A stretch of 64,000 bases of DNA from a virus: IMG/VR virus record IMGVR_UViG_3300027749_000096, positions 1 to 64,000 of that record; one strand, 5' to 3'. The notes under the pieces were generated by a model, which did no database searches, was not told the DNA's origin, and saw only the letters and a list, made by a program, of their open reading frames with translations. Below, piece by piece: positions 7,533 to 23,997 of the stretch (position 1 is its first letter; each line of letters starts with the position of its first letter). Both the position numbers and the translations under genes were made by a program.

Positions 7533-8155
7533 TATGATAAGTGTGCTGTACCAGCTTGAGGAGTGCTGAAGGTTATACTAATAGTGTTTGTATTAACTAC
7601 GGCTAATGTACCACTGATGTCATGTCCATCACAATCTTCTGTCCAAACATTTGGAGTGTATCCTAAATTATGGTTAATATACCATACAGCTTGTGGATCA
7701 GAACAGTTTTGAGCATATGTAAATGAAGTACCATTATTAATAGTGATGGAAGGATTTACATTTATACGTGTAATACATCCTCCAGCATTCACTTCTATAA
7801 TATTAGCTGACCCATTATTATCTGCATAAGACATTCCTATAGAAGAAGGACCTCTATTACATCTTTGAATTTGGTACCTACTTGTATCCATCCAAGGTGG
7901 TTGATAATCACAACTCTCATCATGTGTAGGATAGTATACAGGCAGCCAACCCATTTGTTGAATAGATACTTCACATAGAGCCCCTCCATCATCAGTGTAC
8001 TGATAATTAACTAAGTCTTTACGGATTTCATCCATCCATAGTTTACCACTTTTTCTACAAGATTGAATACCATACTTCTGTCTACGAAATTCATCATAAA
8101 CAGAGTTAGCAAAATTTACTAAGTATTTTTCTCTTTGTGGTAATAAGTTTCTCAT
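7532..8155 (-). CDS. crAss-like structural protein (ring/tail hub-associated)
   Basis: 207 aa; C-terminal WxIxHNLG..P.V beta-domain common in virion proteins; gene context. Confidence 0.55.
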   Translation of the reverse strand: MRNLLPQREKYLVNFANSVYDEFRRQKYGIQSCRKSGKLWMDEIRKDLVNYQYTDDGGALCEVSIQQMGWLPVYYPTHDESCDYQPPWMDTSRYQIQRCNRGPSSIGMSYADNNGSANIIEVNAGGCITRINVNPSITINNGTSFTYAQNCSDPQAVWYINHNLGYTPNVWTEDCDGHDISGTLAVVNTNTISITFSTPQAGTAHLS

Positions 8156-8157
8156 TA

Positions 8158-8289
8158 TTAAGGTTTTTTAGCATTAGCCAGCTTTTGTTCATAAGCATTA
8201 ATACATGCTGAACAACATTGTTTCCCATCTGAAGCTGATCTTTTTTGACAACCACAACTAATTGGGGCATTACAATTTGGACAATTCAT
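8158..8289 (-). CDS. small Cys-rich metal-binding peptide (43 aa)
   Basis: Manually read: MNCPNCNAPISCGCQKRSASDGKQCCSACINAYEQKLANAKKP. Confidence 0.7.
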   Translation of the reverse strand: MNCPNCNAPISCGCQKRSASDGKQCCSACINAYEQKLANAKKP

Positions 8290-8315
8290 TTTATTTGGTT
8301 TTTTTTATGAATAAA

Positions 8316-8858
8316 TTAACAATAACTTCCGTATTTCTGTAATCTTGATTGAGCATACATAAGCAGTTCCATCCCTTCTTGTAAATCATTACATTGTTCC
8401 ACTTTAGCTTTAGCTGCATCAATATAAGATTTAATAAGTCTAAGTTCATTTAGCTGATCTTTTACATCAGGTTCTGGTTCACATGCTGCTAGTTCCACCT
8501 TACAAAGTTCATTATAATATTTATTTGTAATCATACAAACTCTAAGATAATGATATTGAACAAACACTTTATCATTTGGACTTACAGAATATCTTATAGT
8601 GTAGATACCATCAGGTAGACGTTCACTAATTGTACCACATCCAGCACTTTGTATACCAAGAGTACATCCGTTTAGAATAAGATTGAATCCTGATATAACA
8701 TCTATAGCCACTGGTTCATTAAAACCTGGGGATGTAATTTCTAATTTGTTACAAGTAACAGGCACATGAGGGTCATATATACTAGTATCTAGTACACGGA
8801 ACACTGAACAATTATTTGTATCTGGTACATCTAAACTTAACTGGTGTTTGTAAGCCAT
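8316..8858 (-). CDS. crAss-like structural (tail hub-like) protein
   Basis: 180 aa; LPDGIYTIRYSV motif seen in crAss-like tail proteins; gene context. Confidence 0.6.
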   Translation of the reverse strand: MAYKHQLSLDVPDTNNCSVFRVLDTSIYDPHVPVTCNKLEITSPGFNEPVAIDVISGFNLILNGCTLGIQSAGCGTISERLPDGIYTIRYSVSPNDKVFVQYHYLRVCMITNKYYNELCKVELAACEPEPDVKDQLNELRLIKSYIDAAKAKVEQCNDLQEGMELLMYAQSRLQKYGSYC

Positions 8859-8898
8859 TTTATAAACTTTATAGATTTAAAGAGAAAGTATCTCCTCA

Positions 8899-8932
8899 AT
8901 AATAATATACTATTTTTTGAGCAGTTTTCAAA
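8899..8932 (-). promoter_or_regulatory. putative phage late promoter
   Basis: TTTG-N18-GTATATTATTAT on the minus strand. Confidence 0.55.
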
Positions 8933-8933
8933 A

Positions 8934-8969
8934 TAAAAAAAGGGAGAGACATGAAGTCTTCTCCCTTTT
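8934..8969 (-). terminator. Rho-independent terminator
   Basis: AAAAGGGAGA...TCTCCCTTTT stem with a T-run on the minus strand, after the 676-aa gene. Confidence 0.8.
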
Positions 8970-8989
8970 CGGTTTTAAGGATTATGATA

Positions 8990-11020
8990 TTAATAAGTTT
9001 CCAAAGTAACTGTATTACCAGCTGCTGTACAAGCACCAACTACATAGTTAGTTAAAGATGCTGTTGAAGTACCAGTTGGAACATTGAACACTAACAAATA
9101 TTGATCGTTATCAAAAGTACCACTTGGGTTATTAAATCTAGGAACACTGTGTAAAACCATAACTTGATCATACAATGAAGTTCTAGAAATGTTAGCCAAA
9201 GCTGGGTTTTGTTCAATCTCTCTCATTCTTAAGCTTTCTACACGAGCACTATCAGGATAAGCTAATTGTAAGTAACGGTCAGATAAGATCATGTCACGTA
9301 GTACAGTTTCACCACTACCTGAAGTTTGTACAGCTGGTTGAATTATTGTAGCAGTATTAGCTGTAGTATTTACACCAGTGTTACTATTTGAAGTAGTAAA
9401 GCAGTTAACAGCACAAGGATCACCAGACTCATCAGTTAATGAAGTGTAGATTAACAATGGTTCTAAATCATATTTATCTGTTGGAGTGAAAGTACAAATA
9501 CCAAATTTAGTTTCAATATAAGCAGCACTTAATTCAATATGTGGGGGTTGTGTATAACTAAATGAAGCAGCATCAGTAGCAGCTTGATAAATTATAGCAC
9601 CATTTGTAGTACCACTTAAGTTAGCAGCAATTGTTGCATTAGTTGCAATTCCAGCAGAAACTACAGCTGAACCCCCAACACCAACTTGAGTACCTGTACC
9701 TGGGATAACTGTAGCAGCACCTACTTGAGGAGTGTCAATTGCACCAGAATAAAGATCATTGTAATAGTTAACACTAACAGTAGAACTAATTGTAGGAGCA
9801 ATTTGTTGAGCTGGATAAGTAATTGTAATATCAGTATTAGTAGTAAATGCAGTTACAAATGCATTAGGAGGAATACCTTGACCAGCTGTTGTTCCAGAAA
9901 TTGGAACCCAAGCTACAGAACCTACAGCTTTTTGACCTATAGCAACACCAGTTGTACTAGAGACAGCTAATTTAACTGAAGTAGTTGTAGCAGCAGTTAA
10001 AATAGAACTAGCAGAAATATTTACAGAATATTTATATACTCTAGCTTGAACCATTGTATTAAAAATAGGACTCAAATTAATTTGATCAGCCCAATTTAAT
10101 AATGTAACAACTGGATCTTTTTGTAAAGTAGGATCTACAGTGCTGCAACAACCTGTATAAGAATCTAATGTTCTATACATGTTGTGAGATAAGAAACGTA
10201 AAGCTGGACTACCTTTAACATCTACACGTAGACGGTAAGTACTGTCACAAGCTAAACCACAAGTTACTGGAACTTGAACAACATTTTGTAAAGCTTGTTT
10301 AGCAGCAATTTTAATTACACGGCTAACATACTTAGGGTTGATTGTTTTAGTCTTTACAGATTCTTTGTAACCACCAAGAGCAGGACTAATTTTATCACTG
10401 TTAAAGTAAGAACCTTGAGCAATGATGAATGGTTGAGCACTTACTGATTGAACAGCTGTACCATTTGGATTAAAGAAACCAATTTGACCAGCAGTTAAAG
10501 ATGCAGTTGAACCACTAGATAATGTTGGAACTGAAAGTCCAAAAGTAATAGGAGCAGTTGTAGCAATTGTAGCAGTTACAGAATTAGATAAAGTAACTAA
10601 AGTAGAAGTAACAGCAGTAACAGTAGTGTTAGCTGGAATACTTGTACCTGTTACTGTTTGACCTACTGAAACACCAGTTGTAGCAGTAAACTCTAATACA
10701 TTTGGAGCATTAAAAGAAGCACTTGGAGTAGTAGCCAACGGAGTTGTTGGAACACCAATAGTAATTACTGTTACACCAGATACTAATTTAGCAGTAATTG
10801 GAAGTGACAAAGTAATTGTATTAGTTCCAGGGACTGCTGCAACAACTGTTGTACCAGGTTGAATACCAATACCAGAAACTGATTGACCAGCTAATACACC
10901 AGTATCATCAGTTAAAGTTATTACAGTACCTGTTGTGGTACCTAATGTAGCTGTACTAAGTGAAGCAACAGCTACTGAAGAAGGAAGGAAGCTCTTCCTA
11001 AAAGCGTGAGGAAAATACAT
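8990..11020 (-). CDS. auxiliary capsid / major structural protein with inserted beta-repeat domains
   Basis: 676 aa; crAss-like C-terminus (GSGETVLRD...LHSVPRFNNPSGTFDNDQY); three TGVxxGQxxxG..GIP repeats; followed by a terminator. Confidence 0.65.
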   Translation of the reverse strand: MYFPHAFRKSFLPSSVAVASLSTATLGTTTGTVITLTDDTGVLAGQSVSGIGIQPGTTVVAAVPGTNTITLSLPITAKLVSGVTVITIGVPTTPLATTPSASFNAPNVLEFTATTGVSVGQTVTGTSIPANTTVTAVTSTLVTLSNSVTATIATTAPITFGLSVPTLSSGSTASLTAGQIGFFNPNGTAVQSVSAQPFIIAQGSYFNSDKISPALGGYKESVKTKTINPKYVSRVIKIAAKQALQNVVQVPVTCGLACDSTYRLRVDVKGSPALRFLSHNMYRTLDSYTGCCSTVDPTLQKDPVVTLLNWADQINLSPIFNTMVQARVYKYSVNISASSILTAATTTSVKLAVSSTTGVAIGQKAVGSVAWVPISGTTAGQGIPPNAFVTAFTTNTDITITYPAQQIAPTISSTVSVNYYNDLYSGAIDTPQVGAATVIPGTGTQVGVGGSAVVSAGIATNATIAANLSGTTNGAIIYQAATDAASFSYTQPPHIELSAAYIETKFGICTFTPTDKYDLEPLLIYTSLTDESGDPCAVNCFTTSNSNTGVNTTANTATIIQPAVQTSGSGETVLRDMILSDRYLQLAYPDSARVESLRMREIEQNPALANISRTSLYDQVMVLHSVPRFNNPSGTFDNDQYLLVFNVPTGTSTASLTNYVVGACTAAGNTVTLETY

Positions 11021-11071
11021 AGTTTTTAAAATTTAAGGGGTTTATAAATAAAATTTTTTAATGTGTGTTTA

Positions 11072-11084
11072 TAATATAATATAA
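11072..11084 (-). promoter_or_regulatory. putative phage late promoter core
   Basis: TTATATTATATTA about 50 nt upstream of the ATG at 11020. Confidence 0.45.
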
Positions 11085-11088
11085 GGAA

Positions 11089-11553
11089 TTATTTTAAGAA
11101 TAACAATTTATATTTTGTTGAATCAATTAAACTTTTAACATTGTCAAGTTCATTAACTATTTCACTGTGTGGCATAACTGATTGTAAAGACTGTACTTTA
11201 TCTTTTATTTTTCTAAGATAGTCTATACCTTCTTCTACAGTATTTAATTCTGCTGGGGCTGTATTAGGAAGTTCTAATATTTTTTCTTCAGCTCCTTGGA
11301 AGTGTTCTACTAAATCATCAGCATGTTCACCTATTTCATCATAAAAATGACCTAAAGCTTTATGAGCTGCATAAGAACCAAGCCCAGTCACTTTAAGATG
11401 TAATTTATGAAAGCTTGTTACACAGTTTAACAAGTCTTGAGCTAATGCTGCTGTTTGCATACATAGAGCACATGTTTCAGATCCACCATCCATAGAAACC
11501 ATAACAGTTACTGGATTAGATGAAAATATACTATTTCTAGATATTTTTTGCAT
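11089..11553 (-). CDS. ferritin/Dps-like four-helix-bundle protein (DUF5856-like)
   Basis: HKLHLKVTG...YAAHKALGHFYDEIGEHADDLVEHFQG matches the Dps-like H/D/E pattern; C-terminal TKYKLLFLK. Confidence 0.75.
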   Translation of the reverse strand: MQKISRNSIFSSNPVTVMVSMDGGSETCALCMQTAALAQDLLNCVTSFHKLHLKVTGLGSYAAHKALGHFYDEIGEHADDLVEHFQGAEEKILELPNTAPAELNTVEEGIDYLRKIKDKVQSLQSVMPHSEIVNELDNVKSLIDSTKYKLLFLK

Positions 11554-11563
11554 ATTTTATAAT

Positions 11564-12265
11564 TTAACTATTTGTTTGTACAGCTTGTTGTTCTCTTTGA
11601 TATTGTGTAACACTTTCAATATCACCAGCTAATATCATAGCTGTATTGTCAGCTATTATTTCAGCTACATCATCATTAAACTCACATTCTTGATCTGATG
11701 TATAAAAAGTACCTGTTGCTATATCTATACAACCATTGAATTTAATTTCTCTAGGTTTTCTATAATATATTAAATGACATTCAGGAATAGTAAATTCACC
11801 ATTTGTATAAACTTTAAGTTTATTACTCATTATAGTTGAAACAGTTTCAGCCCAGTCAAAGTTAGGTTGTTTATTTTTATCATCTAATATGATTGATATA
11901 TTAGCTTCTTCTACTTGATACACTGTCATCCTACGTGGAGGACAACATTCTTTCTCAGCAAATACATCTGTTCTAACATAGTGAAGATAATCATCTGGTA
12001 GATTAGAGCATTCATAATAAATACCTTTATCCACCATTGTTACTTCTACATGTTTTAATAACTTCTGTACATCATCAACTATTCCACTACTTTGTTCAGC
12101 ACCTTCTTTACGAGTATTAATAGCATATAGTTGTCTTCTAGTCCACTCAATCTGAGCTTTATTAGCTGCTTCTTGAATCTGCCAACATTCTAGATTATCA
12201 TAATCCAATGAGGCTAACTTATTCAGTCTCTGCTTTATTTTAATCTGTAAGAGGTTATTATTCAT
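11564..12265 (-). CDS. head-tail connector / ring protein
   Basis: 233 aa; NKAQ and YYRKP motifs typical of crAss-like ring proteins; gene context. Confidence 0.6.
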   Translation of the reverse strand: MNNNLLQIKIKQRLNKLASLDYDNLECWQIQEAANKAQIEWTRRQLYAINTRKEGAEQSSGIVDDVQKLLKHVEVTMVDKGIYYECSNLPDDYLHYVRTDVFAEKECCPPRRMTVYQVEEANISIILDDKNKQPNFDWAETVSTIMSNKLKVYTNGEFTIPECHLIYYRKPREIKFNGCIDIATGTFYTSDQECEFNDDVAEIIADNTAMILAGDIESVTQYQREQQAVQTNS

Positions 12266-12268
12266 AGT

Positions 12269-12514
12269 TTAACATTTCCATTTTTTTCTTGCTAATCTTA
12301 ATCTACTATTTGGATCTTTTGCTGCATTAGGAAACTTTTTCATTTGACCTGCAGATCTAGCACAAAATGATTTTTTTCTAGGACCTCCTTGAGGTTGAGG
12401 AGCTTTGAGATGAGAACCTGGATGACTACTATTATAAGAAGCTCTACCTTTAGCATTTAAACCACCTGTAGGATTTTTACCTTCTTTTCTGGTCCAAGCT
12501 GGAGTCTTTGCCAT
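12269..12514 (-). CDS. small basic phage protein (DUF6321-like)
   Basis: AWTRKEGKNPTGGLNAKGRASY...RKKSFCAR...NSRLRLARKKWKC, a widespread phage family. Confidence 0.75.
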   Translation of the reverse strand: MAKTPAWTRKEGKNPTGGLNAKGRASYNSSHPGSHLKAPQPQGGPRKKSFCARSAGQMKKFPNAAKDPNSRLRLARKKWKC

Positions 12515-12518
12515 ATTA

Positions 12519-12752
12519 TTATTTTTTATAAGGATGTTCTTTATGCCATTTTTTAACTGAAGCTACTCCCTGTTTAACAGTTTTAGCTTTAGATTTTTGA
12601 GTAAGGTCTATAGTGTCCCATTTTCCTTTATCTGATGTAGGATGAGTAACCATAATATCACCCTTCTTACCTTTACCTAAACCTGTAGCACTTTCTTTTT
12701 TATATACTACATGTTTCTCACCACCTGCTGTAACTTTAGTTTTCTTAGCCAT
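12519..12752 (-). CDS. small basic hypothetical protein
   Basis: 77 aa, Lys-rich; its start overlaps the upstream stop (TAATG). Confidence 0.75.
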   Translation of the reverse strand: MAKKTKVTAGGEKHVVYKKESATGLGKGKKGDIMVTHPTSDKGKWDTIDLTQKSKAKTVKQGVASVKKWHKEHPYKK

Positions 12753-13726
12753 TATTTTGGTAATCCTGCTTTAAAAGTTGTTGTTAAATCAGTAAAAGTT
12801 GATGCTCCTTTTGCTAGTTTTTGAAAACTAACTACATCTATATATGCTTCATATCCATCATCTACATTTATAAAAGTACCACTCATAAAAAATATATCTC
12901 TTGTACTACCATTAATTAAATTTGCTCCACCTATTGATTTTATACCTGTAGTACCTACTAAAAATGTTTGACCAGCAGCTCTTATAATTTCTGTAGCTAT
13001 TACCATTTGAGCAGGTGTAACTGATCCAGTTAATGGAGCTAGTAATGTTCTATTAGCTGGTTGTGCTATTATATTAGTTAAAAAGAATTGTTGATAATCA
13101 TCAACAAAATTTGATTGTACAGGTGTACCAGCATTACTAATAGCCCAACTTACAGCTGCAGCCACTGCACCACATGAAGTATTTTGTCCTGTTTGTCCTC
13201 TTCTAATTATAGAACCAACTGTCCCATTACTAGATATACCTATATGAGGCATATTCATAACAAACAGATTTCCTGTATTAGTGACATGACTAGCATAAGC
13301 TCCCAGTCCAGTGATACCTGTATGAGGATAACCAGCTAAACCACCAGACATAAATGGTCCTAAAAAATCATTCAATGATAAAGGATGTTGTCCTAAGTTA
13401 TCATTATCTACAAAATTAGCAGCATTAATATCATCAGAACAAACTGATAAAGACATCAATGTATCATTAGCAGGATAGCCTAAGTTCTTTAAAAACTTCT
13501 TGGTATATTCTCCAAATGCTTGAGCTGATACAGCATTAGGGTATGTAACTCTAACTGTATTAGTATAAGAAGTTGGATTTCTATATTCTGTGTTTTCATT
13601 TATCACCTCAATCCAATCTCCTGGTTTAGGTTTTCTAAATGAATAAGTTAATGTACCAGCAGCTATTGAACCATCTGGCTTACGTAGTACATAAGGTTTT
13701 TTAGGTTTGGTATTATTACTTCTCAT
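12752..13726 (-). CDS. theta-class (LCIB/LCIC-type) carbonic anhydrase with a basic N-terminal extension
   Basis: SVCSDD (C96, D98), FMSGGLAGYPHTGITGLGAYASH (H147), PHIGISSNGTVG (H161), RRGQ...SCGA (C185): the LCIB/theta-CA motif order with Cys/His/Cys Zn ligands. Confidence 0.85.
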   Translation of the reverse strand: MRSNNTKPKKPYVLRKPDGSIAAGTLTYSFRKPKPGDWIEVINENTEYRNPTSYTNTVRVTYPNAVSAQAFGEYTKKFLKNLGYPANDTLMSLSVCSDDINAANFVDNDNLGQHPLSLNDFLGPFMSGGLAGYPHTGITGLGAYASHVTNTGNLFVMNMPHIGISSNGTVGSIIRRGQTGQNTSCGAVAAAVSWAISNAGTPVQSNFVDDYQQFFLTNIIAQPANRTLLAPLTGSVTPAQMVIATEIIRAAGQTFLVGTTGIKSIGGANLINGSTRDIFFMSGTFINVDDGYEAYIDVVSFQKLAKGASTFTDLTTTFKAGLPK

Positions 13727-13727
13727 T

Positions 13728-13871
13728 TTATTTTTTAGATTTTATTTTCTTTTCTTGTTTAAGCATTTCAGCAGATGGTTTTTTTCCAGAGCCTTTATTT
13801 TCACGGATGGAATCCCATAATCCATGTTGAGAAACAGAACCATCTTTACGTTTAATCATTTGCTTACTCAT
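13728..13871 (-). CDS. small basic protein (47 aa)
   Basis: Manually read: MSKQMIKRKDGSVSQHGLWDSIRENKGSGKKPSAEMLKQEKKIKSKK. Confidence 0.75.
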   Translation of the reverse strand: MSKQMIKRKDGSVSQHGLWDSIRENKGSGKKPSAEMLKQEKKIKSKK

Positions 13872-13872
13872 A

Positions 13873-14055
13873 CTATTTTACTTTAATAAGACTAGCCACT
13901 TTAACAGTATCAATCTTAATACTGTCTTTTACTTTTACACTGTCAATACCTTTTAAAGAAACTGTATCAACAGAATTAACTACTTCTGAATTAGATTGAC
14001 AACTATTTAATGCAACTAATGATACTAACACTAAACTTACAATTACTTTTTTCAT
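13873..14055 (-). CDS. small lipoprotein
   Basis: MKK plus a hydrophobic stretch and LNSC lipobox; repeated VDT/IDS/IDT units. Confidence 0.7.
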   Translation of the reverse strand: MKKVIVSLVLVSLVALNSCQSNSEVVNSVDTVSLKGIDSVKVKDSIKIDTVKVASLIKVK

Positions 14056-14075
14056 GTTTTTATTTTGAGGGTTTA

Positions 14076-14447
14076 TTACTTTTTTTTCTTAGCACCTGCT
14101 ATTTTATCAGCAAATGTTATTTTATTTTTAGGGGGAGCTAATGCAGCAAACTTCTTTTGAGATGGTGTCATACTTTTAACAGTTCCACCTTTTTTCATTT
14201 GAGTGTCTCTCATCATAGTTCCATTAGACATACCACCCATTTCCATTTTCTTTTTAATAGATCCACCAATTTTCATATAACCCATTTTAATTGCAGCTTT
14301 TTTATCAGCAGCCATATCTTTTTCAGAACCTTCTTTGTCATGAGCTCCTTTAGCATCCATCTTCTTATCATAAGAAGATTTTTCATAAGCAGCCATTCCA
14401 CCTTTTTTCTTGGGACCTATTGATCCACCTTTTTTCATGCTATACAT
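14076..14447 (-). CDS. Lys/Met/Gly-rich basic protein with repeated xxxGG motifs
   Basis: 123 aa; MKKGG, KKKGG, MKIGG, MEMGG, MKKGG. Confidence 0.75.
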   Translation of the reverse strand: MYSMKKGGSIGPKKKGGMAAYEKSSYDKKMDAKGAHDKEGSEKDMAADKKAAIKMGYMKIGGSIKKKMEMGGMSNGTMMRDTQMKKGGTVKSMTPSQKKFAALAPPKNKITFADKIAGAKKKK

Positions 14448-14480
14448 ATTATTTATTTTTTTCTATTTTTAGCCATTGCT

Positions 14481-14999
14481 TTAAAAGTCTTTATGTTTTT
14501 GAAGATACTCCAGTAATCTTTCTGCAGTGTTTACATTATCATCAATTTGTCCAAGAAATCTATTACAATTTCCACATAACAAACCTCTAACTTTTCCTGT
14601 CTTGTGACAGTGATCAACTGCTAATGATCTATCTAGCTTATCTTCATGTTTATGACAAATATAACATCTGGAATCTTGTTCAGATAACATTTCATTATAT
14701 TTCTCAGGAGTAATACCATATTTTTTCTTAAGTATATGTGCTCTCTGCTTATCTAAGTTATATAGTTTTTTACTTCTAGTTATATAACATTCTTTACAAT
14801 ACCAGCCATTTTTAGGTCTATCTAAAATATCTTTCCAAGTATCACAATTTGTACAAAAGAATTTACCATTTTTATATAAATTATAAGTTTCAGCTTCAAT
14901 TTTAAGTAACTCTTCAATAGATATACCTTTTCTTTTAGCTCTTCTAGCTATTTGATAAGGATGTTGATTTCTTATAGATTCTTTTTTAATTCCACTCAT
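14481..14999 (-). CDS. Endonuclease VII-family (HNH-like) homing endonuclease
   Basis: KYGITPEKY..MLSEQ..CYIC...LAVDHCHKTGKVRGLLCGNCN. Confidence 0.9.
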   Translation of the reverse strand: MSGIKKESIRNQHPYQIARRAKRKGISIEELLKIEAETYNLYKNGKFFCTNCDTWKDILDRPKNGWYCKECYITRSKKLYNLDKQRAHILKKKYGITPEKYNEMLSEQDSRCYICHKHEDKLDRSLAVDHCHKTGKVRGLLCGNCNRFLGQIDDNVNTAERLLEYLQKHKDF

Positions 15000-15154
15000 T
15001 TTTTCTTACTCATCTTGCGAAAAGTCTTAGCTAAATTATAACGTTTAGAACCAGGAGGACATGTAGAACTACCAAACTTAGAACCTGTACAAGGTTTATC
15101 AGTTCTCATTCCTTTAACAGCTCCTTGTATCCAATTTTTTTTACCTTTAGCCAT
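14996..15154 (-). CDS. small basic protein (52 aa)
   Basis: Manually read: MAKGKKNWIQGAVKGMRTDKPCTGSKFGSSTCPPGSKRYNLAKTFRKMSKKK; ATGA overlap with the endonuclease. Confidence 0.75.
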   Translation of the reverse strand: MAKGKKNWIQGAVKGMRTDKPCTGSKFGSSTCPPGSKRYNLAKTFRKMSKKK

Positions 15155-15167
15155 AACTTATAAATTT

Positions 15168-16184
15168 TTATTGATTCCAATGTTTTTCTACTTTCTTAGT
15201 TAAGTCCCCAAGAATTTCTTCATTTAAAGGATTTCTAAGATATTCAACTACATCAGTTAGGTTACGTCCTAATAATGTTGTAGTTTGCATATGATAAATA
15301 AATCCATCAGCTTTGGTAGCAATATATCTATAGTAATTACTTTCTTTCACTATAGCTTTAATTTTCAAAGCTTCCATATCTAAATTAGCAGCCTCAATAA
15401 ACTTCTCTGCAGTTTTTCTTTTGTTCTTATCTACAGACTCTCCGTTAATAAACTTATCCATGTTATCATAGATGATGTCATTAGGAGTGGTTTTTTTATA
15501 CTGAGCACCGTTGATGTCAAGTGTCTTAGCTACTAAGAATAACTTATTCTGATTTTTATTATAAAGTTTCTCTAATTCAGAAAGAGCTTTATTTCTAAGT
15601 TTCTTAACTTCTGTATTAACCGATGCACTCTCTTCAAGTCTATCTAAATAAAACTTAGGAGGGGTAGCCATTCTACGTGCTTCTTCTAAAGATTTAGCCA
15701 CCATAGAAAATCCACCAGCTTCAATTGCATAAAGTCTAATTAAATCATATGGGTCTGTAGCTGGTTCTAAATGAACTGGTTCATTTCCACATCTGATTTT
15801 AATCTTATCCCAGAAATCACTATTATCTAGTTTAAGTAATTTTACTTTATTCCAGAACATTTCATCATTAGCATCAATAACATTAGCAGCTAGTTCTTTT
15901 TCTAACTGAGCCACTATGCTTCTAATTTGTTTCACCTTAGCTTCTTGATCTTCTAAAGGAAGATTCTTAACTTCAGGAGCATACTCATTTAATCCTGTAA
16001 GGTATCTTTTAATACCATTAATTTCTAAACAAGCAATAGTTTCTTCATGAAAAGCTCCATCAAAAAGACTAAGTCCATATTTCTGTAAGCCCATGTTATC
16101 TACTTGAACATCAAAATAAGGACGGATTGCAATACTAGATTTCTTGTTCTGTGGATACTTTTCCACAATTGTTACATTACTCAT
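15168..16184 (-). CDS. conserved crAss-like capsid-module protein
   Basis: 338 aa; position downstream of the MCP; RYLTGLNE motif. Confidence 0.6.
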   Translation of the reverse strand: MSNVTIVEKYPQNKKSSIAIRPYFDVQVDNMGLQKYGLSLFDGAFHEETIACLEINGIKRYLTGLNEYAPEVKNLPLEDQEAKVKQIRSIVAQLEKELAANVIDANDEMFWNKVKLLKLDNSDFWDKIKIRCGNEPVHLEPATDPYDLIRLYAIEAGGFSMVAKSLEEARRMATPPKFYLDRLEESASVNTEVKKLRNKALSELEKLYNKNQNKLFLVAKTLDINGAQYKKTTPNDIIYDNMDKFINGESVDKNKRKTAEKFIEAANLDMEALKIKAIVKESNYYRYIATKADGFIYHMQTTTLLGRNLTDVVEYLRNPLNEEILGDLTKKVEKHWNQ

Positions 16185-16258
16185 TGGTTGGTTTTTTGTT
16201 TTTTTTATATATCTAATTCGGATTTATTCCGAATAAAGTATTCTGTTTTTACATCAAA

Positions 16259-16798
16259 TTATGATGTAGCAAAAGGGGTAGTTATTGTACCACTTGCTAA
16301 AATTGTACCACTTACATTCCATACTGTTGAAGAAATACATTCTACAACAATTCTAGTTCCTTTAAGACCACCAGTTGTAGTACCACTTTGGGTAATAGCA
16401 ACATGTGTAGATCCATCTCCTGAAAATAATTTAGGACCAGCTGTAGAACCAGGAGTTGTAGCTTCTAATCCAATTAAAACTGTTCCTTGTAAAAACTGAC
16501 TAGCAGAAGCAGTTATAACTTTAAAATTATTACTTGTTATAGTGGTATTTACTATAAATGTATATTTTAATCCAACTTTTGCAGAAGGAAGAGTAAACAC
16601 AATACCAGCTGCTCTATCAGATAAAACTACAGAACCAGATTGAGTTTCACTTAATGTTACAGTGGAACTTGACCCTGAAATTGTATTAATTTTATTTAAA
16701 TTGTCAATAATAGTATTTAAATGACCAAACTTTGCTAAAGACATATCAGCTCCTTTTATTAAATTATCATCTGGTGATTTTGGACTAAATTTTTTCAT
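16259..16798 (-). CDS. putative head fibre/decoration protein
   Basis: 179 aa; SGSVV..FTLPSA..GLKYTFIV beta-sandwich pattern of phage fibre proteins. Confidence 0.55.
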   Translation of the reverse strand: MKKFSPKSPDDNLIKGADMSLAKFGHLNTIIDNLNKINTISGSSSTVTLSETQSGSVVLSDRAAGIVFTLPSAKVGLKYTFIVNTTITSNNFKVITASASQFLQGTVLIGLEATTPGSTAGPKLFSGDGSTHVAITQSGTTTGGLKGTRIVVECISSTVWNVSGTILASGTITTPFATS

Positions 16799-16831
16799 TG
16801 TTATATTTTTTTAATTTGTCTTAAATAATTG

Positions 16832-16889
16832 AACCTAAGAAGAGTTGCCAGCTCTCTATGTGATCAGCATAGTGGGCATACCTTAGATT
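16832..16889 (-). ncRNA. candidate tRNA-like/pseudoknotted small RNA
   Basis: Closing stem AATCTAAGG/TCTTAGGTT encloses hairpins CTATG-CTGATCA-CATAG and AGAG-CTGGCAA-CTCT; the linker TGCC is complementary to the loop GGCA. Confidence 0.45.
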
Positions 16890-17101: not shown

Positions 17102-18046
17102 TTATAATTTTAAATTGTTTGTAAAATATGTTTTATAAATTTGATATTTTCGGTCTAAAGATATACAAGAATCTTTATATAAATAGTTTGCTATTTTTTT
17201 AGCATCTTCTCCATAATAAGAAACTCTGTAAAAATTTTTACCAGAAACTTGTGTTGGATACTTTTTATCAGTTTGAATTATTTTAGAACAAAAAAATATA
17301 AATTCAAATATTGTTTCAAGAGTTCCACATAACATTAAATGTTTCATTTTATCTTTAGTAAAATAAATACCCCCATCTCCATCTATACATCCTCTCCAAA
17401 AATCTTTGGATTGTTTTAATAAATCATGAGGAATTATAGAAACACTTTTATTATGTGTAAAACCTAAATCAACTAAACGATCTCTAATTTTTTTAGAATT
17501 AACTCTCATTCTTGAACAATCACCTTTACCTTTTTTAACATCTCTATTAGATTTTAGAAAAGCTTTAAATTTTTCTAAATGATCTATATCATTGTTATGT
17601 AAGGTTAGTTCAATAGAAGCTTCTTTATTTTGTTCTATGTGACCGTCTGTATATAACATCCCAATCCAATATAAAGCTTCACAAGTTAACTCATCAAAAA
17701 CATTATGATCTATTTCAGTTTCATACCTAATGTGAGCCTGGTTTGAAAGATTCCTATATTCTACATCTTTAGATTTAAGAAATTCTCTTATAGTTTTACG
17801 TGTTAAATTTAACTCTTTTTCTATAAAAATTTGAGACTTCCCCTCCTGATATAAAGATAAGACTTTTTCAAAACATTCTTTTCTTTTTTCTTCTTGTTCT
17901 AGATTATAATCTATACCAACATTTGAAAGAACTTTTTTAACACTTGGTTGTGAGGAAGATGTTAACTTACATATTTCAGTTAACATCTTTCCTTCTTTGT
18001 ACAACCTTATTATTTCTTCGGATTTTTCTAAACTTATTTTTTTCAT
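17102..18046 (-). CDS. free-standing LAGLIDADG homing endonuclease with N-terminal HTH repeats
   Basis: YWIGMLYTDG and FWRGCIDGDG motifs; C-terminal LDRKY; inserted just after the MCP. Confidence 0.9.
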   Translation of the reverse strand: MKKISLEKSEEIIRLYKEGKMLTEICKLTSSSQPSVKKVLSNVGIDYNLEQEEKRKECFEKVLSLYQEGKSQIFIEKELNLTRKTIREFLKSKDVEYRNLSNQAHIRYETEIDHNVFDELTCEALYWIGMLYTDGHIEQNKEASIELTLHNNDIDHLEKFKAFLKSNRDVKKGKGDCSRMRVNSKKIRDRLVDLGFTHNKSVSIIPHDLLKQSKDFWRGCIDGDGGIYFTKDKMKHLMLCGTLETIFEFIFFCSKIIQTDKKYPTQVSGKNFYRVSYYGEDAKKIANYLYKDSCISLDRKYQIYKTYFTNNLKL

Positions 18047-18062
18047 TTGTATCTATTTAATA

Positions 18063-18094
18063 CAAATGTAATCATAAATCATCAATAATCCAAA
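18063..18094 (-). promoter_or_regulatory. Bacteroidota housekeeping-type promoter
   Basis: TTTG-N20-TACATTTG matches the -33/-7 consensus (TTTG / TAnnTTTG), just upstream of the LAGLIDADG ATG. Confidence 0.7.
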
Positions 18095-18105
18095 TTTATT
18101 TTTAT

Positions 18106-19725
18106 TTAAAAGGATCCACCAGTAACAGGGTTTCTCATAACTATTTTCAATACCTTAGTTGGATCTTTAACCCAGATAGCAGGCATTGTTTGAGTCATAA
18201 ATACTCTATAACCATTGAAGTTACCAGAGCTTTGGAAACCTTGTGTTCTACCCATATAGTCCATTGTACCATTTTGATAGAACCATTTCAATTGATTATC
18301 CCAGCTTAATTTCAACAAGAAGATGTTGTCATTAGTATTATCTGTGATGTCAAAGATAATGAAATTATATGAACTTAATGGGAAACCATCAATAATTGGA
18401 TTCTCAATATCATTTGTATGAACATTGTCAAATGCAGGGTTCAATACAAATTTAACGTTAGCTAAGAATGGGATGATGTAACTAGTGTATGCAAAACCAA
18501 AGTTTAAATCCATACCTGTACCAGTAACAGCTCCTAGTTCATGAGCATTAAGAACTAAACCAGAATTAACTGCTTCTTTCTTAATTGCTTCATTAACAAG
18601 TTTCATACCACCCATACCTGTTTGTACAATCAAAGATCTTTGAGGATCTGGTCCTTTAAATTCAACTTTACCATTGAAGAAGTTGAAGATTTCAGATTTA
18701 AACAAGTCTAAGTTGAAAGAAGCTTTGTTATAGATTCTCTTATAAGAGTTATCTAATTGCTTCCAAAGACCCACTGATAAACGAATATCATCTGGTCCAT
18801 CTTGTCTAACCTTACCACCTTGACCCCACATTAAGTAAGTTTCAATGTCATTAGCAATCTTAGTTAAGTGTGCTGCTTCTAATGTAGTTAAGAAAGAACG
18901 TGTAAGTTGACCATTAGCATAAGCTTTCTTTACATAGTCTTTACCCATTTTCTCAGCCATTGTTTCCAAGTTGGTAACAGATGGATCTACATTTTTGTCA
19001 AAGTTTCTCCACATTTCAATAACTGGGATAGTACCATCAGCTTTCATACCACCTTTCATCATTAAGTCTGCACGACTAGAAATAGAATAGTGTACGTGAG
19101 CTTCTGCTCCACCAACATAGTTATAGAATTCACGGAAACCAGCTGATACATTACCTAAGTCTGAGAATCTTTCTCCATACTCTCCACGAGCAGAACCTTT
19201 TCTGAAAACTTTAGTACCAACTTTCAAATACTTATTGTCTAAGTATTTAGTGTTGTCATTGTTCACCAACTGTACAGTGTAGATAAAACCATCACCAGCT
19301 GGGATGATATCATCAACTGTAATGTACATTTCCACACCATTGTACTTGTCATAAGTGATAATATCACCATGACCAAATGAACGTTTGTTCAATTTGATTT
19401 TAAATGTTTGACCATCAATACCTTTAGTAGCATTACCTGTTTCAATGTCTTCAGTAATGTAAGGAAGATCCTGAGCTACAGGTATCTGCCATTTGTACTC
19501 ACCACGGTTATTATCTACTGAAATAACATTCTTTCCACCAAAACTAGACATTTGGTATAACGGCATTTCTACTTTTTGAGCCATTGCCCATAAGTCCACT
19601 GGACCTAAATCTGTAGGTTCAGCTGATTTAAGGAGGTTAGAAAGGTGATAAGAGTCTACGTGTGAGCTTGTTTGATAATGGTTATCACGTAGAAATATAC
19701 CATTATTTAAAACTGGAGTTGCCAT
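18106..19725 (-). CDS. major capsid protein (crAss-like)
   Basis: 539 aa; portal-scaffold-MCP order; biased codon use; crAss-like MCP motifs (EYKW, LMWG, GLWKQL, IWVKDPTK). Confidence 0.85.
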   Translation of the reverse strand: MATPVLNNGIFLRDNHYQTSSHVDSYHLSNLLKSAEPTDLGPVDLWAMAQKVEMPLYQMSSFGGKNVISVDNNRGEYKWQIPVAQDLPYITEDIETGNATKGIDGQTFKIKLNKRSFGHGDIITYDKYNGVEMYITVDDIIPAGDGFIYTVQLVNNDNTKYLDNKYLKVGTKVFRKGSARGEYGERFSDLGNVSAGFREFYNYVGGAEAHVHYSISSRADLMMKGGMKADGTIPVIEMWRNFDKNVDPSVTNLETMAEKMGKDYVKKAYANGQLTRSFLTTLEAAHLTKIANDIETYLMWGQGGKVRQDGPDDIRLSVGLWKQLDNSYKRIYNKASFNLDLFKSEIFNFFNGKVEFKGPDPQRSLIVQTGMGGMKLVNEAIKKEAVNSGLVLNAHELGAVTGTGMDLNFGFAYTSYIIPFLANVKFVLNPAFDNVHTNDIENPIIDGFPLSSYNFIIFDITDNTNDNIFLLKLSWDNQLKWFYQNGTMDYMGRTQGFQSSGNFNGYRVFMTQTMPAIWVKDPTKVLKIVMRNPVTGGSF

Positions 19726-21136: not shown

Positions 21137-23890
21137 TTATTTTTCTTTCTTTTTATCAGATTGTTTAAAGTCATATTTGTTCTTATTTTCTCTAGCTATC
21201 TGAAGTTGTTTATCAGCTATCTGTTGTTGAGCCTGAAGCTTCTCTCTTTCTATATTATGTTTTTCTTGAGTTTGAGCAGTTCTATTAATTTCCTTTTCAC
21301 GGTCAAAATTCATAGCTTCCTGATAGTTCTGTTGTTCTTGAATTTTAGACATAGCATCTATATAATCAGACTGGTTATTTTTATTAAGATCAACCATAGC
21401 TCCCATACCAGAAGCTCTAATCTGAGCCTCAAGAATTCTAGCTTTTCTATCTTTCTCAGACTCATCAGCTTTAAATTGATTAGAAGCTTGTAATGCAGCT
21501 TGTTCAGCTTGGATTTGTTTATCCTGCATTTCTTGTTGATGTTGTTGTTCCTGTTGTTTCTGAGCATTAACTTTTTCTTCAGCAGATTTAAGAACACCTG
21601 TAAGTTCAGCAATAGACTCTGATTTAATTACATTACCTAAGTCATATATAGAAGCTCCTGTAGCATTATTAGTGAGAGCTAGTTGTTTAAGCTGCTCCAT
21701 TATAGCACGAGAATTAGTTTTAGTTGTACAGAATATATTTAAATCTCTAAGAAGTAAATCTGTTCCATTCATTTGGAAATTTATCTTCTCATCAGCTCCA
21801 GTGATATATTGTAGACGTAAACTAGGTTTTTTAGAATTATAATATTGAGCTAAATCAGTTCTCATTTGATGCACTCTAGGCATCAAGTTATCTGAGTGTT
21901 GTATAAAGTATTGTTCTGTTTGAGCATAAGAAGCATTAGCTGCTTGTTCCACCCCTGTAGCAGTTTGTTGTTGAGCAATCTGCATACCCATCCTTTGTTG
22001 ATTCAATCCAATAACTTCAAAAGCTTGAGTTTTAAAATAGGTGGCTAATTGTATCCTAGATAGTAAACGTTGAGTTTGTTCTAAGTTCAACACTTGATAG
22101 TGCTGAAAATTAAGAGCATTCTCTGTATTAGTGATACTAGTGTCTAAAGGAAGCATTTGGAAGTTTTTCATAGCTACATAAGCTTTAGCTAGATTGTTCT
22201 TACCCCAATCTTCTCCCAATGAGTGACGTGGTAAAGCATTCTGATCTAACATAATAACTGTACCTAATTCATCCACAAGAATATCTGCTATCTGATTGTT
22301 TACAATGTTATATCCAATCTGAAATGGTTTCATTAAATCTACAAGAGATACTGAACGGGTATTTCTATCCCCAAATACAGATCCTTCTACAGGAAGTTTA
22401 CATCCATAAACTGTAGCATCCCCTTTAAACTGAAAAGGTACACGTCCAGGTCTACCACCATTAAGTCCTAAATATATAGGATTTATACCTCCAGGATTAT
22501 TCATACCCCAGAAAGCTGGTCTGTTAGGTCCAATCTTTACACCACCCCAAACTTCATTAATCCATATCCAATCTATATGTTCTCCAAACACTAAATTATC
22601 TTTAGTATTTTGTTTCCATATAGAATTATCATATTGTGGTTTGTCTGTAACCTTATATTCTTCTGATATAATATCTTGTATAATATCTCCTTCTGTAGTT
22701 ATCTTAGTAAGGTGCCCAACTTTTCTTTGACTCTTCCAATAAATAGTTGACACTCTAAGCATATAACTTTTACCAAAATCTTGCAAGTCTTCTGAGTCTG
22801 AAAGTATCCACTGTACAATATCTCCAAATTGACTTCCAGCATCATATAAAGACGTAAACTGTCTATACCCCAAACTAGGCATTTGTGTATTCCATTCATG
22901 AGTTCTCTTTGGGTCATAATAGCTTCCATCATTTTGCATTCCTTGTATAGCATACCCAGCTGAACGTGCAGGATATATAGCTTCTAAAGCTTCTAATTGT
23001 TGATCATTCATCATCCATCCATACTTATCTACAACATCTGATATAGACATCATATCTAATTTACCCACCCAATTACCTTGGGATACATAACGTACATCAG
23101 GACTTTTATGGTAGAAAGTAAGTAGGGGATTCCATAGTTCCACCTCATAATCATCTTCCATCATATTAAAATGCCAGAACTCTCTATCTGTAATAAGACT
23201 ATCTCTAAAAGCTCTTTCTTCTAATTCCTGCATTCTAAATCTTTCTTCATCAACTTTCATTTGATGATCAGCCCATTCTTCAATCATTGATCTATAATCT
23301 TTCTTAAAGAACTGTTCTATTTCAGGAAGGCTTTTAAGTTTTTCAGGATTTAATTGTTGTTGAGCTTCTTCACTAGATGGATCTAATCCCATCTCCATTA
23401 TAGTAGCCATTTGTTTTTGTTGAGCCTGTTGTAATAACACCTTCTCAATCATTCCTCTTTTCTCTTCTAACATCTCATTATATGACATGTCATCAACAGC
23501 TCTAAACATTATTCTTGAACTTCTTTTAGAAAATTCATTTGTAAGAACATTAATTACATTAGGAATAATAGGATAGAATTTAAGCTCAAATGCTGATACA
23601 TCTTCTTTAGTTAATGTATCAATAAGATCAGCCATCTCATTATCTTCTTCTACAATATAATCTTGTTTATCAATAATACCTTTAGCTAATTTATAATTCT
23701 TCATTAAACGTCTAGCATTACGTCTAAGTTGTTTCATACCCTGAAACTCTAACCAGTCAAGATTCCATGCTCTCCATTGATCATCCTTTTCTTTTTCTGG
23801 TACAAACTGAAATGGTTGGATTAAAGTTCCCATCTTGTTGTACTCAACCTTTGCCCCCTTTTTGAGATCTAATGCATTATATATCTTCAT
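21137..23890 (-). CDS. portal protein
   Basis: 917 aa; FYPIIPNVINVL and SLVDLMKPFQIGYNIVNNQI crAss-like portal motifs; Gln-rich C-terminus; adjacent to the terminase. Confidence 0.85.
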   Translation of the reverse strand: MKIYNALDLKKGAKVEYNKMGTLIQPFQFVPEKEKDDQWRAWNLDWLEFQGMKQLRRNARRLMKNYKLAKGIIDKQDYIVEEDNEMADLIDTLTKEDVSAFELKFYPIIPNVINVLTNEFSKRSSRIMFRAVDDMSYNEMLEEKRGMIEKVLLQQAQQKQMATIMEMGLDPSSEEAQQQLNPEKLKSLPEIEQFFKKDYRSMIEEWADHQMKVDEERFRMQELEERAFRDSLITDREFWHFNMMEDDYEVELWNPLLTFYHKSPDVRYVSQGNWVGKLDMMSISDVVDKYGWMMNDQQLEALEAIYPARSAGYAIQGMQNDGSYYDPKRTHEWNTQMPSLGYRQFTSLYDAGSQFGDIVQWILSDSEDLQDFGKSYMLRVSTIYWKSQRKVGHLTKITTEGDIIQDIISEEYKVTDKPQYDNSIWKQNTKDNLVFGEHIDWIWINEVWGGVKIGPNRPAFWGMNNPGGINPIYLGLNGGRPGRVPFQFKGDATVYGCKLPVEGSVFGDRNTRSVSLVDLMKPFQIGYNIVNNQIADILVDELGTVIMLDQNALPRHSLGEDWGKNNLAKAYVAMKNFQMLPLDTSITNTENALNFQHYQVLNLEQTQRLLSRIQLATYFKTQAFEVIGLNQQRMGMQIAQQQTATGVEQAANASYAQTEQYFIQHSDNLMPRVHQMRTDLAQYYNSKKPSLRLQYITGADEKINFQMNGTDLLLRDLNIFCTTKTNSRAIMEQLKQLALTNNATGASIYDLGNVIKSESIAELTGVLKSAEEKVNAQKQQEQQHQQEMQDKQIQAEQAALQASNQFKADESEKDRKARILEAQIRASGMGAMVDLNKNNQSDYIDAMSKIQEQQNYQEAMNFDREKEINRTAQTQEKHNIEREKLQAQQQIADKQLQIARENKNKYDFKQSDKKKEK

Positions 23891-23895
23891 GATTA

Positions 23896-23997
23896 TTAAT
23901 TAGTTATAGTGTAAAATATTTCTGTAATAGAAGATGTAGCATTTGAATATACAAATTCACCAGCACATACATCTGAAAGTGTCATAGTGTATTCCAT
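23896..23997 (-). CDS. possible 33-aa peptide
   Basis: MEYTMTLSDVCAGEFVYSNATSSITEIFYTITN; TAATG overlap with the terminase stop. Confidence 0.4.
   Translation of the reverse strand: MEYTMTLSDVCAGEFVYSNATSSITEIFYTITN

Follow-up and report, generated by a model that had tools for sequence, protein, structure and literature searches.

A phage-encoded LCIB/theta-type carbonic anhydrase homologue joined to a modular N-terminal domain

Introduction

Theta-type carbonic anhydrases (CAs), the family of the LCIB proteins, are to our knowledge discussed almost only within algal CO2-concentrating mechanisms. In the table of one review the family is entered for diatoms and green algae only (PMC7215798). 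Here, we describe a gene of this family in the genome of an uncultured freshwater phage: the 324-amino-acid (324-aa) open reading frame (ORF) at positions 12752–13726 (minus strand) of a stretch of 64,000 bases (the window), which is the first 64 kb of the IMG/VR virus record IMGVR_UViG_3300027749_000096 (72,005 bases, 56% complete by CheckV). Its product, a variant of a known enzyme family, has a modular domain at the N-terminus that is undescribed so far.

The closest described proteins are the structurally characterized members of the LCIB/theta family (PtLCIB4, PDB entry 5b5y; Chlamydomonas LCIB, 5k5w, and LCIC, 5b5x; 6kfs; 9vzj), with which the phage protein shares the Pfam match, the fold and the Cys/His/Cys and Asp/His/Arg residues in register. 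It differs from them in its putative N-terminal docking module, in a loop that is nine residues longer and in sequence (17–24% identity), and its phage carriers show no sign of a CO2-concentrating mechanism. The canonical beta-CAs (Escherichia coli Can and Coccomyxa 3ucj) have the core fold and the Cys/His/Cys metal site in common with it, but are characterized by the motifs C-x-D-x-R and H-x-x-C, both absent from the phage protein.

In viruses, alpha-, beta- and gamma-class CAs are reported as auxiliary genes of viral operational taxonomic units in a preprint (bioRxiv 10.64898/2026.01.21.700432); these are also viral enzymes of CO2 and bicarbonate, but they belong to other classes and are described there as free metabolic genes, not as module fusions. 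The viral structure collection BFVD holds giant-virus beta-CAs (Pandoravirus and Harvfovirus), but of the matches counted there at E ≤ 0.001, at least 500 in number, none is an LCIB-like viral structure. For the modular side of the protein, the nearest parallels are the virion-display and capsid-targeting systems of T4 Hoc, T5 pb10 and the targeting peptide of the T4 internal proteins, which likewise combine a short N-terminal unit with interchangeable C-terminal domains and are encoded with structural genes. No sequence or fold relation to these systems was found, and the cargo described here is a complete enzyme. In the searchable full-text literature (subscription journals and supplements lie outside its reach) no report of a phage LCIB/theta-CA was found, in agreement with a first-pass annotation of the window, which knew of no characterized phage theta-CA, and PF18599, the Pfam family concerned, appeared for diatoms only.

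Results

Enzyme domain

In the first-pass annotation, which was made from the letters of the DNA, the ORF had been read as a theta/LCIB-type CA from its motifs. Each of these lies at the residue given there: C-S-D at 96–98, GGLAGYP at 128, S-H at 146–147, P-H-I-G-I at 160–164, R-R-G at 175 and S-C-G-A at 184–187. This agreement goes far beyond what chance would give. The assignment held in a Pfam search, in which LCIB_C_CA (PF18599) matched residues 66–253 over profile positions 2–177 of 223 with 117.5 bits (cutoff 25, E = 7e-34); a search of the whole record with the same family gave 118 bits. Among solved LCIB-family chains, phmmer matched 6kfs (E = 3.6e-20), 9vzj (1.8e-18), PtLCIB4 (2.3e-17) and, with lower significance, Chlamydomonas LCIB (6.5e-7) and LCIC (4.1e-6). 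The whole protein gave nothing meaningful against PHROGs (best E 0.34).

A model of the 324-aa protein was predicted with AlphaFold2 (AF2) using 89 homologues (mean predicted local distance difference test, pLDDT, 91.2; predicted template-modelling score 0.85). Superposition with VIA-align gave Z = 28.0 to PtLCIB4 (5b5y_B) with a root-mean-square deviation (rmsd) of 2.2 Å for 236 of 241 residues, the aligned range of the model being residues 52–319. The corresponding Z values were 27.9 for 6kfs, 22.4 for Chlamydomonas LCIB and 21.9 for LCIC, with rmsd values of 2.0–2.9 Å over the LCIB-family structures. PtLCIB4 and 6kfs were also ranked highest by Foldseek (E about 1e-16, namely 1.9e-16; target TM 0.83). 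Canonical beta-CAs reached Z = 10–13 (best 12.9), and distant structural relatives included CS2 hydrolase (Z = 7.3 in VIA-align) and COS hydrolase (Foldseek). Since the model is so much closer to LCIB-family structures (Z = 22–28) than to canonical beta-CAs, it places the 324-aa protein in the LCIB subgroup and not among the canonical enzymes. In the sequence, C96 is followed by S-D-D-I-N with no arginine at +4, and H161 and C185 are 24 residues apart, so that neither C-x-D-x-R nor H-x-x-C is present.

The register to PtLCIB4 was set by the PDB mutant chains S47R and H88A, S47 being equivalent to S97. Residues C46, D48, H88, H102 and C126 of PtLCIB4 then correspond to C96, D98, H147, H161 and C185 of the phage protein. 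We take C46, H102 and C126 to be the zinc ligands of PtLCIB4 (presumably those of Jin et al., 2016), and by this register the Cys/His/Cys ligands named in the first-pass annotation occupy the family positions. Together with R175, the five phage residues are invariant in the 89 homologues (23–85% identity to the query) and in 24 phage-type sequences (alignment A2). His162 and Arg194 of Chlamydomonas LCIB (CrLCIB), the equivalents of H147 and R175, are called important in a passage of PMC5876011. The loop at residues 103–118 is longer than its counterparts in known structures (Table 1); within it G112 is invariant in A2, and N110, Q113 and P115 are conserved in at least 90% of the sequences. The ratio of nonsynonymous to synonymous substitution rates (dN/dS) was 0.20–0.44 in all 15 pairs of six close alleles, which indicates purifying, though relaxed, selection.

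N-terminal module

The N-terminal stretch of about 45 residues had been described in the first-pass annotation as basic and separate from the CA domain. This was confirmed: residues 1–44 have an isoelectric point (pI) of 10.0 (9 Lys and Arg against 4 Asp and Glu) and lie outside every alignment to LCIB structures. In the AF2 model they form three strands (10–15, 27–29 and 37–40; block pLDDT 88–92), followed by a linker with pLDDT below 50 (residues 44–46). Residues G19, G24, L26, P33, K34, G36, W38, E40 and V41 are invariant in alignment A3.

When the N-terminal 51 residues were compared by tblastn with 50,697 phage records only chance-level matches were obtained (E ≥ 2), and eight N-terminal extensions of phage LCIB proteins gave nothing below E = 0.015 against PHROGs. 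A profile search among longer proteins returned 450 matches at E ≤ 0.01 of 8000 scored. The search for fusions of the N-terminus to other domains, proposed in the first-pass annotation, was thereby answered: among 120 of the 450 matches listed, 33 were LCIB fusions and 87 were other proteins without a Pfam domain. The lengths of these 87 were 87–90 aa (14 proteins, consisting of the module and a Thr/Ser run), 133–148 aa (55), 172 aa (one) and 243–250 aa (17). A 245-aa non-LCIB protein of two phages (G002, 102 kb, and G003, 114 kb) also opens with the module. The predicted model of a 138-aa non-LCIB member has the same three strands, the same dip at the linker and a separate alpha/beta domain; compared with 48,161 PDB representatives its best Z was 5.7 (none reached 8), all matches falling on the cargo (residues 44–138). 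In BFVD, the third-ranked match was a 142-aa protein of Virus NIOZ-UU157 (35% identity over 52 columns), which probably shares the module.

In IMG/VR, 235 of 259 matches to a module pattern were relatives, and the following counts refer to the 80 loci kept from these, mostly on contigs of 100–117 kb. They contain 133 unique ORFs with the module, which is N-terminal in 130. The 102 distinct cargos comprise 33 short ones (25 rich in Thr, Ser or Pro) and 69 longer ones in 22 clusters; LCIB is one of these clusters, with four members. In 115 of the 130 ORFs the module is followed by a Cys-Cys pair. Single loci carry up to four different genes of this kind (for example L155). Homologues of the small basic proteins encoded around the LCIB gene of the window recur in these loci (the 47-aa protein in 59 of 80, the 77-aa protein in 17 and the DUF6321 protein in 55), those of the 47-aa and DUF6321 proteins lying a few kilobases from the module genes. 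One locus, L197, mirrors the neighbourhood in the window, with a module gene, Dps, the 47-aa gene, LCIB and DUF6321.

It is highly probable that the N-terminal region is a separable docking module. The Thr-rich tails that bear it cannot be enzymes. A predicted complex of the module with the major head protein scored 0.00 (mark 0.32, obtained without controls); it lends no support to such a contact and does not speak against one either. A prohead-protease cleavage motif at the module boundary (I42-N43-E44; S-x-E in L013 and L033) was considered and dropped, as it was inconsistent across groups.

Homologues and the phage clade

A word search at near lengths yielded 227 matches among 3163 candidates; the best 120 of these all carry PF18599, are 309–332 aa long and lie on contigs of up to 124 kb. 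An exhaustive search of 1.84 billion representatives gave 861 matches at E ≤ 1e-3, including 40 at E ≤ 1e-30, and 34 of 42 pattern matches in IMG/VR were loci with an LCIB relative. Representatives of 442–1544 aa were rejected as phage-like relatives; many of them (P0137–P0171) hold two or three tandem LCIB domains of another type (C-P-D-E-I-N).

Bacterial homologues, mentioned in the first-pass annotation, were recovered from a scan of one genome per prokaryotic species, which used a single pattern (the GG..G.P..G motif) and so biased which cellular homologues surfaced: 97 of 121 candidate stretches were confirmed as LCIB relatives. Most of these belong to Balneolaceae, Prolixibacteraceae and other Bacteroidota, Planctomycetota, Chloroflexota and Spirochaetota. 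The single-domain bacterial and metagenome-assembled-genome (MAG) homologues (Balneolaceae, Prolixibacteraceae, Planctomycetota, Chloroflexota, Saprospirales and Chitinophagaceae) have the same domain and motifs as the phage protein, but are 159–379 aa long, lack the N-terminal module, fall outside the phage clade and are at most 33% identical to it, with the sole exception of a 1.5-kb MAG contig (48%).

A quick maximum-likelihood tree (LG+G4, with support from the SH-aLRT test only) was calculated from 175 rows, of which 17 are viral, 107 are unnamed representatives and 51 derive from genomes. Representatives shorter than 200 or longer than 420 aa and genome ORFs below 215 aa were omitted, and after locus L076 every third locus was kept. 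All 17 viral rows fell into one clade with 21 metagenome representatives and the 1.5-kb MAG contig (SH-aLRT 100, stem length 0.72). The nearest named rows beyond it include Chitinophagaceae and Cyclobacteriaceae, several being Bacteroidota. On this sequence comparison, the phage LCIB proteins are a distinct, well conserved clade spread over unrelated lake phage lineages, and the lengthened loop (residues 103–118) is a feature of this clade. The MAG contig (L036, 1,571 bases), the sole 'cellular' sequence inside the clade, is probably a mis-binned viral fragment.

Other phage lineages and tandem paralogues

At the remaining phage loci the LCIB proteins are 332–406 aa long and have unrelated N-terminal extensions. 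In L033 roughly the first 35 residues are shared by three more proteins of that phage, in L013 by two more, and several of the proteins with these shared N-termini continue with Pro/Thr linkers of up to about 200 aa. Pfam was searched with ten proteins from L009, L013, L032 and L033 (five have an N-terminal segment in common with LCIB), and the only match was a subtilase in L033. As to the neighbours of these genes, those of L013 (5105–10558) flank a 425-aa protein that matches a 'protease' PHROG, and the subtilase gene of L033 lies among its shared-N-terminus genes (7842–16858).

The distant T4-like carriers of LCIB have portal and capsid proteins with 32–36% identity to those of cyanomyoviruses, the nearest being Synechococcus phages. 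The LCIB gene comes directly after the portal gene in L016 (same ORF layout in L017 and L020, similar in L021) and directly after the major head gene in L025 (L026, L027 and L030 are similar in layout).

Two tandem LCIB genes are present at six loci (L008, L011, L012, L023, L028 and L031, at about 7600–9800 in each locus taken with 8-kb flanks). In each pair the first copy is extended at the N-terminus and the second starts at the catalytic domain, with the motifs intact in both. The two copies could possibly form an anchored/unanchored heterodimer; they resemble the LCIB–LCIC heteromer that is mentioned in PMC5876011.

Genomic context

The window (GC 27–34%) consists of a minus-strand block (bases 1–31,800) and a plus-strand replication block (32–64 kb). 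The LCIB gene is transcribed in the same direction as the portal, capsid and virion-protein genes (Table 1), with stop and start codons that overlap or abut, and no terminator-like site was seen across the 11–20 kb region of the window around it. The minus-strand block also contains large unannotated genes, possibly including tail genes. The tight coupling to small basic genes described in the first-pass annotation is evident from the TAATG overlap on one side of the LCIB gene and the one-base gap on the other, the adjoining products having pI values of 10.1–11.4. One of these, the DUF6321 protein, matches the C-termini of eight PHROG families without known function.

Table 1. Features of the late structural region and of the LCIB gene (window positions)
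Feature	Position	Strand	Basis or remark
Virion structural protein, one flank of the island	11564–12265	-	phrog_29507, E 1.6e-7; conserved in Lbo-JY46
Accessory island, roughly 2.9 kb, between two core structural genes	12269–15154	-	absent in Lbo-JY46; order and content vary in L001–L007
81-aa DUF6321 protein, pI 11.4	12269–12514	-	Pfam PF19846, E 1.7e-18
77-aa basic protein directly downstream of LCIB, pI 10.1	12519–12752	-	start overlaps LCIB stop (TAATG)
Whole LCIB gene, 324 aa: N-terminal module, linker and LCIB-type CA domain	12752–13726	-	ORF list, PF18599, AF2 model
LCIB-fold catalytic domain, residues 52–319	12770–13573	-	VIA-align and Foldseek on predicted model
Active-site codon stretch	13172–13441	-	C96 13439–13441; D98 13433–13435; H147 13286–13288; H161 13244–13246; R175 13202–13204; C185 13172–13174
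Lengthened loop, residues 103–118	13373–13420	-	9 residues longer than PtLCIB4, 6kfs and 9vzj (gaps in phmmer alignments)
Basic three-strand beta module ('anchor'), residues 1–44, then linker 44–46	13595–13726	-	AF2 model, alignment A3
47-aa basic protein directly upstream of LCIB, pI 10.3	13728–13871	-	one base before LCIB start codon
Core structural-module gene, 338 aa, other flank of the island	15168–16184	-	no family match; conserved in L001–L007 and Lbo-JY46
Major head protein	18106–19725	-	phrog_11589, E 6.6e-32
Portal	21137–23890	-	same block as LCIB gene
Large terminase	23997–26219	-	same block as LCIB gene

Among isolates, the Leptolyngbya phage Lbo-JY46 comes nearest in capsid, portal and terminase; it has the same order of terminase, portal and capsid genes and no LCIB gene. 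The major head proteins are 29% identical over 99% of the length; identity to crAss-like capsid proteins is 24%. Since the homologues of the two flanking genes (15168–16184 and 11564–12265) adjoin each other in Lbo-JY46, with no LCIB gene between them, the segment 12269–15154 is read as an inserted island. It comprises a 52-aa basic ORF, an endonuclease VII/HNH gene, a 123-aa Lys-rich ORF, a lipoprotein-like ORF, the 47-aa basic ORF, LCIB, the 77-aa basic ORF and the 81-aa DUF6321 ORF. The LCIB gene is accessory and not part of the structural core. The first-pass description of a gene embedded in the structural module is thus right for the late structural cluster in which it lies, but the gene occupies a variable accessory island there rather than a core position.

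Seven IMG/VR loci (L001–L007) keep the order of the window (portal, capsid, LCIB, virion protein, Dps, 676-aa protein). Their capsid proteins are 93–100% and their LCIB proteins 62–90% identical to those of the window, and the small genes around LCIB are reordered. In L002 the LCIB gene is a recombinant: roughly the first 87 and the last 75 codons are near-identical to the window, the catalytic centre stems from a less closely related allele and the capsid protein is 100% identical. One close relative appears to lack the LCIB gene.

Several further genes of the island and the cluster were noted. The endonuclease VII/HNH gene (14481–14999, minus strand; phrog_307, E = 6e-34) lies 750 bases upstream of LCIB and may contribute to the mobility of the island. 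The lipoprotein-like ORF (60 aa, 13873–14055, minus strand), with a hydrophobic stretch followed by Cys, is found only in L002 and L003. The 47-, 77- and 81-aa basic proteins of the window are 67–90% identical to those of phages L009 and L010, in which the LCIB protein is only 41% identical; beyond LCIB and these three proteins, no tblastn match to other window proteins was found in the two phages. These tiny Lys-rich genes are conserved between phages that have otherwise diverged.

A Dps/ferritin-like protein is encoded in the structural cluster (11089–11553, minus strand; phrog_858, E = 6e-20); it is kept in L001, L002, L006 and L007 at 69–94% identity and adjoins LCIB again in L197. The adjacent 676-aa protein (8990–11020, minus strand), rich in Thr, Val and Gly and with internal repeats, has no PHROG or Pfam match and is kept in L001, L006 and L007 at 64–73% identity; at the matching position Lbo-JY46 has a 631-aa ORF, with no similarity in tblastn. 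A homing-endonuclease-like gene (17102–18046, minus strand; phrog_4645, E = 3e-47) stands directly downstream of the capsid gene. Because it is absent from L001–L007 and is skipped by an RNA-library contig that joins 17125 to 18113, it is taken to be a recent mobile insertion. In the replication block, a DnaB-like helicase gene (58979–60907, plus strand) is split by an intein that includes a domain of the HNH endonuclease type (Intein_splicing, E = 1.1e-12; HNH_3, E = 5e-6).

Host, occurrence and expression

The photosystem gene psbA (PF00124) was found in none of ten LCIB-bearing viral records, four of which are at least 90% complete, a Synechococcus control being positive; the psbA-free records include complete T4-like genomes of 203 and 217 kb. 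This hints at the heterotrophic host presumed in the first-pass annotation, but the nearest isolate by capsid, at 29% identity, is a cyanophage of Leptolyngbya. Nothing in the neighbourhood of the LCIB gene points to sulfur metabolism. Freshwater and lake metagenomes from 18 studies contain the window stretch, a possible source sample being set aside. Contigs from three of four RNA libraries overlap the 5' third of the LCIB gene, which hints at its expression; DNA may be present in such libraries, however, and these contigs deviate from the window by 12–31 letters. The parts of the gene without a contig are uninformative.

Discussion

We read the LCIB gene product as a two-part late protein, an LCIB-type CA fixed to an assembly of the phage, of which the virion is the likeliest; taken as a whole, we regard this reading as evenly balanced between right and wrong. 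Residues 52–319 belong to the LCIB/theta subgroup of the beta-CA fold and would form a zinc enzyme, with the metal held by C96, H161 and C185 and with D98, H147 and R175 positioning the zinc-bound water or hydroxide. The enzyme would most probably interconvert CO2 and bicarbonate, and we are confident, short of certainty, that it is a genuine active LCIB-type hydratase. Residues 1–44 would fold independently and, joined by a short flexible linker, would serve as an interchangeable N-terminal docking unit that in a widespread group of freshwater phages (100–130 kb) precedes many unrelated C-terminal cargos and bare Thr-rich tails. Tethering to a phage assembly, and most likely to the virion, is suggested because the gene is probably co-transcribed with structural genes and because the other cargos resemble exposed fibres or tails; for the virion as the actual docking target the chances seem about equal either way. 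Enzymes of this class have such a high turnover that a small number of anchored copies could bring CO2 and bicarbonate to equilibrium inside or at a small cell. In the physiological role that we infer, the likeliest benefit would be the trapping of respiratory CO2 in the form of bicarbonate, for use in those carboxylations of the host that supply the synthesis of purines and pyrimidines, a suggestion we offer tentatively and think somewhat more likely to be wrong than right.

A wider scenario can be drawn, which we consider possible but rather unlikely to hold in full. Here, a universal 40-residue tag would load the particle with 'hairs' rich in Thr, with small binding domains and, in part of the lineages, with a fully active theta-CA, and the virion would carry a CO2/bicarbonate catalyst into or onto the next host. 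The T4-like and other phages would have built the same design independently with other tags, sometimes as an anchored/unanchored heterodimer.

Several observations speak against a tethered, active enzyme. With regard to activity, Chlamydomonas LCIB and LCIC are described in a passage of PMC5876011 as lacking CA activity in vitro although the site is intact, so that conservation of the residues is no guarantee of activity. With regard to the module, the window protein lacks the Cys-Cys pair, its own family carries the module on LCIB only (one match in the complete 128-kb genome G001) and a near-length word search with residues 1–48 gave only LCIB proteins (27 of 36 candidates). The position next to head-module genes is recurrent but not universal: in the complete 114-kb genome G003 the LCIB gene is more than 50 kb from the capsid gene, and in group A (L011) its upstream neighbour encodes an ATPase-like protein. 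Comparison of the whole protein with the 50,697 phage records, by DNA search and tblastn, gave no match and hence no isolate homologue there. The gene also seems dispensable, because its dN/dS is relaxed for a core enzyme, the L002 allele (8001–8975 of that locus) is a mosaic with 92–99% DNA identity to the window at its ends and 33–83% in its centre, and a relative is seemingly without it: an RNA-library contig joins 12490 to 13734 through 34 other letters, skipping both LCIB and the gene of 77 aa. Finally, no ATP-grasp carboxylase domain or PurE, as consumers of bicarbonate, was found in G000, G001, G003, G005 and G008, and four complete LCIB phage genomes encode neither.

The strongest alternative is an ordinary soluble auxiliary metabolic enzyme, free in the cytoplasm late in infection, that raises bicarbonate or buffers pH, the module serving oligomerization, stability or nucleic-acid binding unrelated to the virion. 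The accessory and mosaic nature of the gene, its distance from the capsid gene in G003, the strongly basic module and the extension-free tandem paralogues are all compatible with such an enzyme, as are the alpha-, beta- and gamma-class CAs that a preprint reports as viral auxiliary genes (bioRxiv 10.64898/2026.01.21.700432). It leaves aside, however, that the module is common to at least 22 other cargo clusters and to bare Thr-rich tails, that independent lineages join LCIB to other shared N-termini followed by long Pro/Thr linkers and that LCIB recurrently adjoins portal or capsid genes in the T4-like relatives; nor do the phages examined encode a carboxylase that would use the bicarbonate. 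We hold this explanation to be unlikely, if a serious competitor.

A change of substrate seems improbable. The same fold and metal site could hydrolyse another small linear molecule, such as COS or CS2, through a remodelled active-site loop, as is known of some enzymes with the beta-CA fold, and the nine additional residues with conserved N110, G112, Q113 and P115 do adjoin the C-S-D motif, the phage clade sits on a long stem branch and CS2 and COS hydrolases are among the distant structural relatives. The LCIB-family structures are nevertheless far closer (Z = 22–28 against 7.3 for CS2 hydrolase), the full set of LCIB catalytic residues is kept and the gene neighbourhood gives no pointer to sulfur metabolism.

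Slightly less probable still, and in our view on a par with each other, are a cyanobacterial host whose physiology is attacked and a non-catalytic particle protein. In the first of these, a cytosolic CA that the phage delivers or makes would drain the bicarbonate pool of the CO2-concentrating mechanism and stop carbon fixation; cytosolic CA in cyanobacteria is reported by Price and Badger (1989) to give a high-CO2-requiring phenotype. The relationship of the window to Leptolyngbya phage Lbo-JY46 in capsid, portal and terminase and that of the T4-like carriers to Synechococcus phages (32–36% identity) would fit such a host, but cyanophage proteins are matched at low identity, an LCIB gene is absent from Lbo-JY46 itself, psbA is missing from all ten LCIB-bearing records, the GC content of the window is 27–34% and several of the nearest named rows beyond the clade are Bacteroidota. 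In the second, the protein would be a structural or binding module on the particle with its metal site retained for stability only. Poxvirus D8, an inactive CA-like virion protein, is a precedent, the other cargos of the module look non-enzymatic (Thr-rich tails and small beta-rich domains) and a non-catalytic barrier function is proposed for Chlamydomonas LCIB/LCIC in a passage of PMC5876011; it is countered by the non-ligand residues D98, H147 and R175, which are as invariant as the ligands in the 89 sequences and in the paralogues.

The tethered LCIB-type CA is thus the reading that we carry forward. Its CA domain can be assayed without culturing the phage and is therefore experimentally easy to approach. 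Should the enzyme be active, phages would influence the chemistry of inorganic carbon through a class of CA that is undescribed for phages in the searchable literature. The fusion of the enzyme to a widely shared module points to its attachment to a phage structure more than to a metabolic gene of the usual kind. The module may matter more than the enzyme: it defines a large unannotated family of phage proteins, with 450 matches and 22 or more types of cargo, that is unnamed in Pfam and PHROGs. The principle of a single docking unit shared by many passengers would help us to understand particle decoration or protein delivery, and would also be of use as a natural display scaffold.

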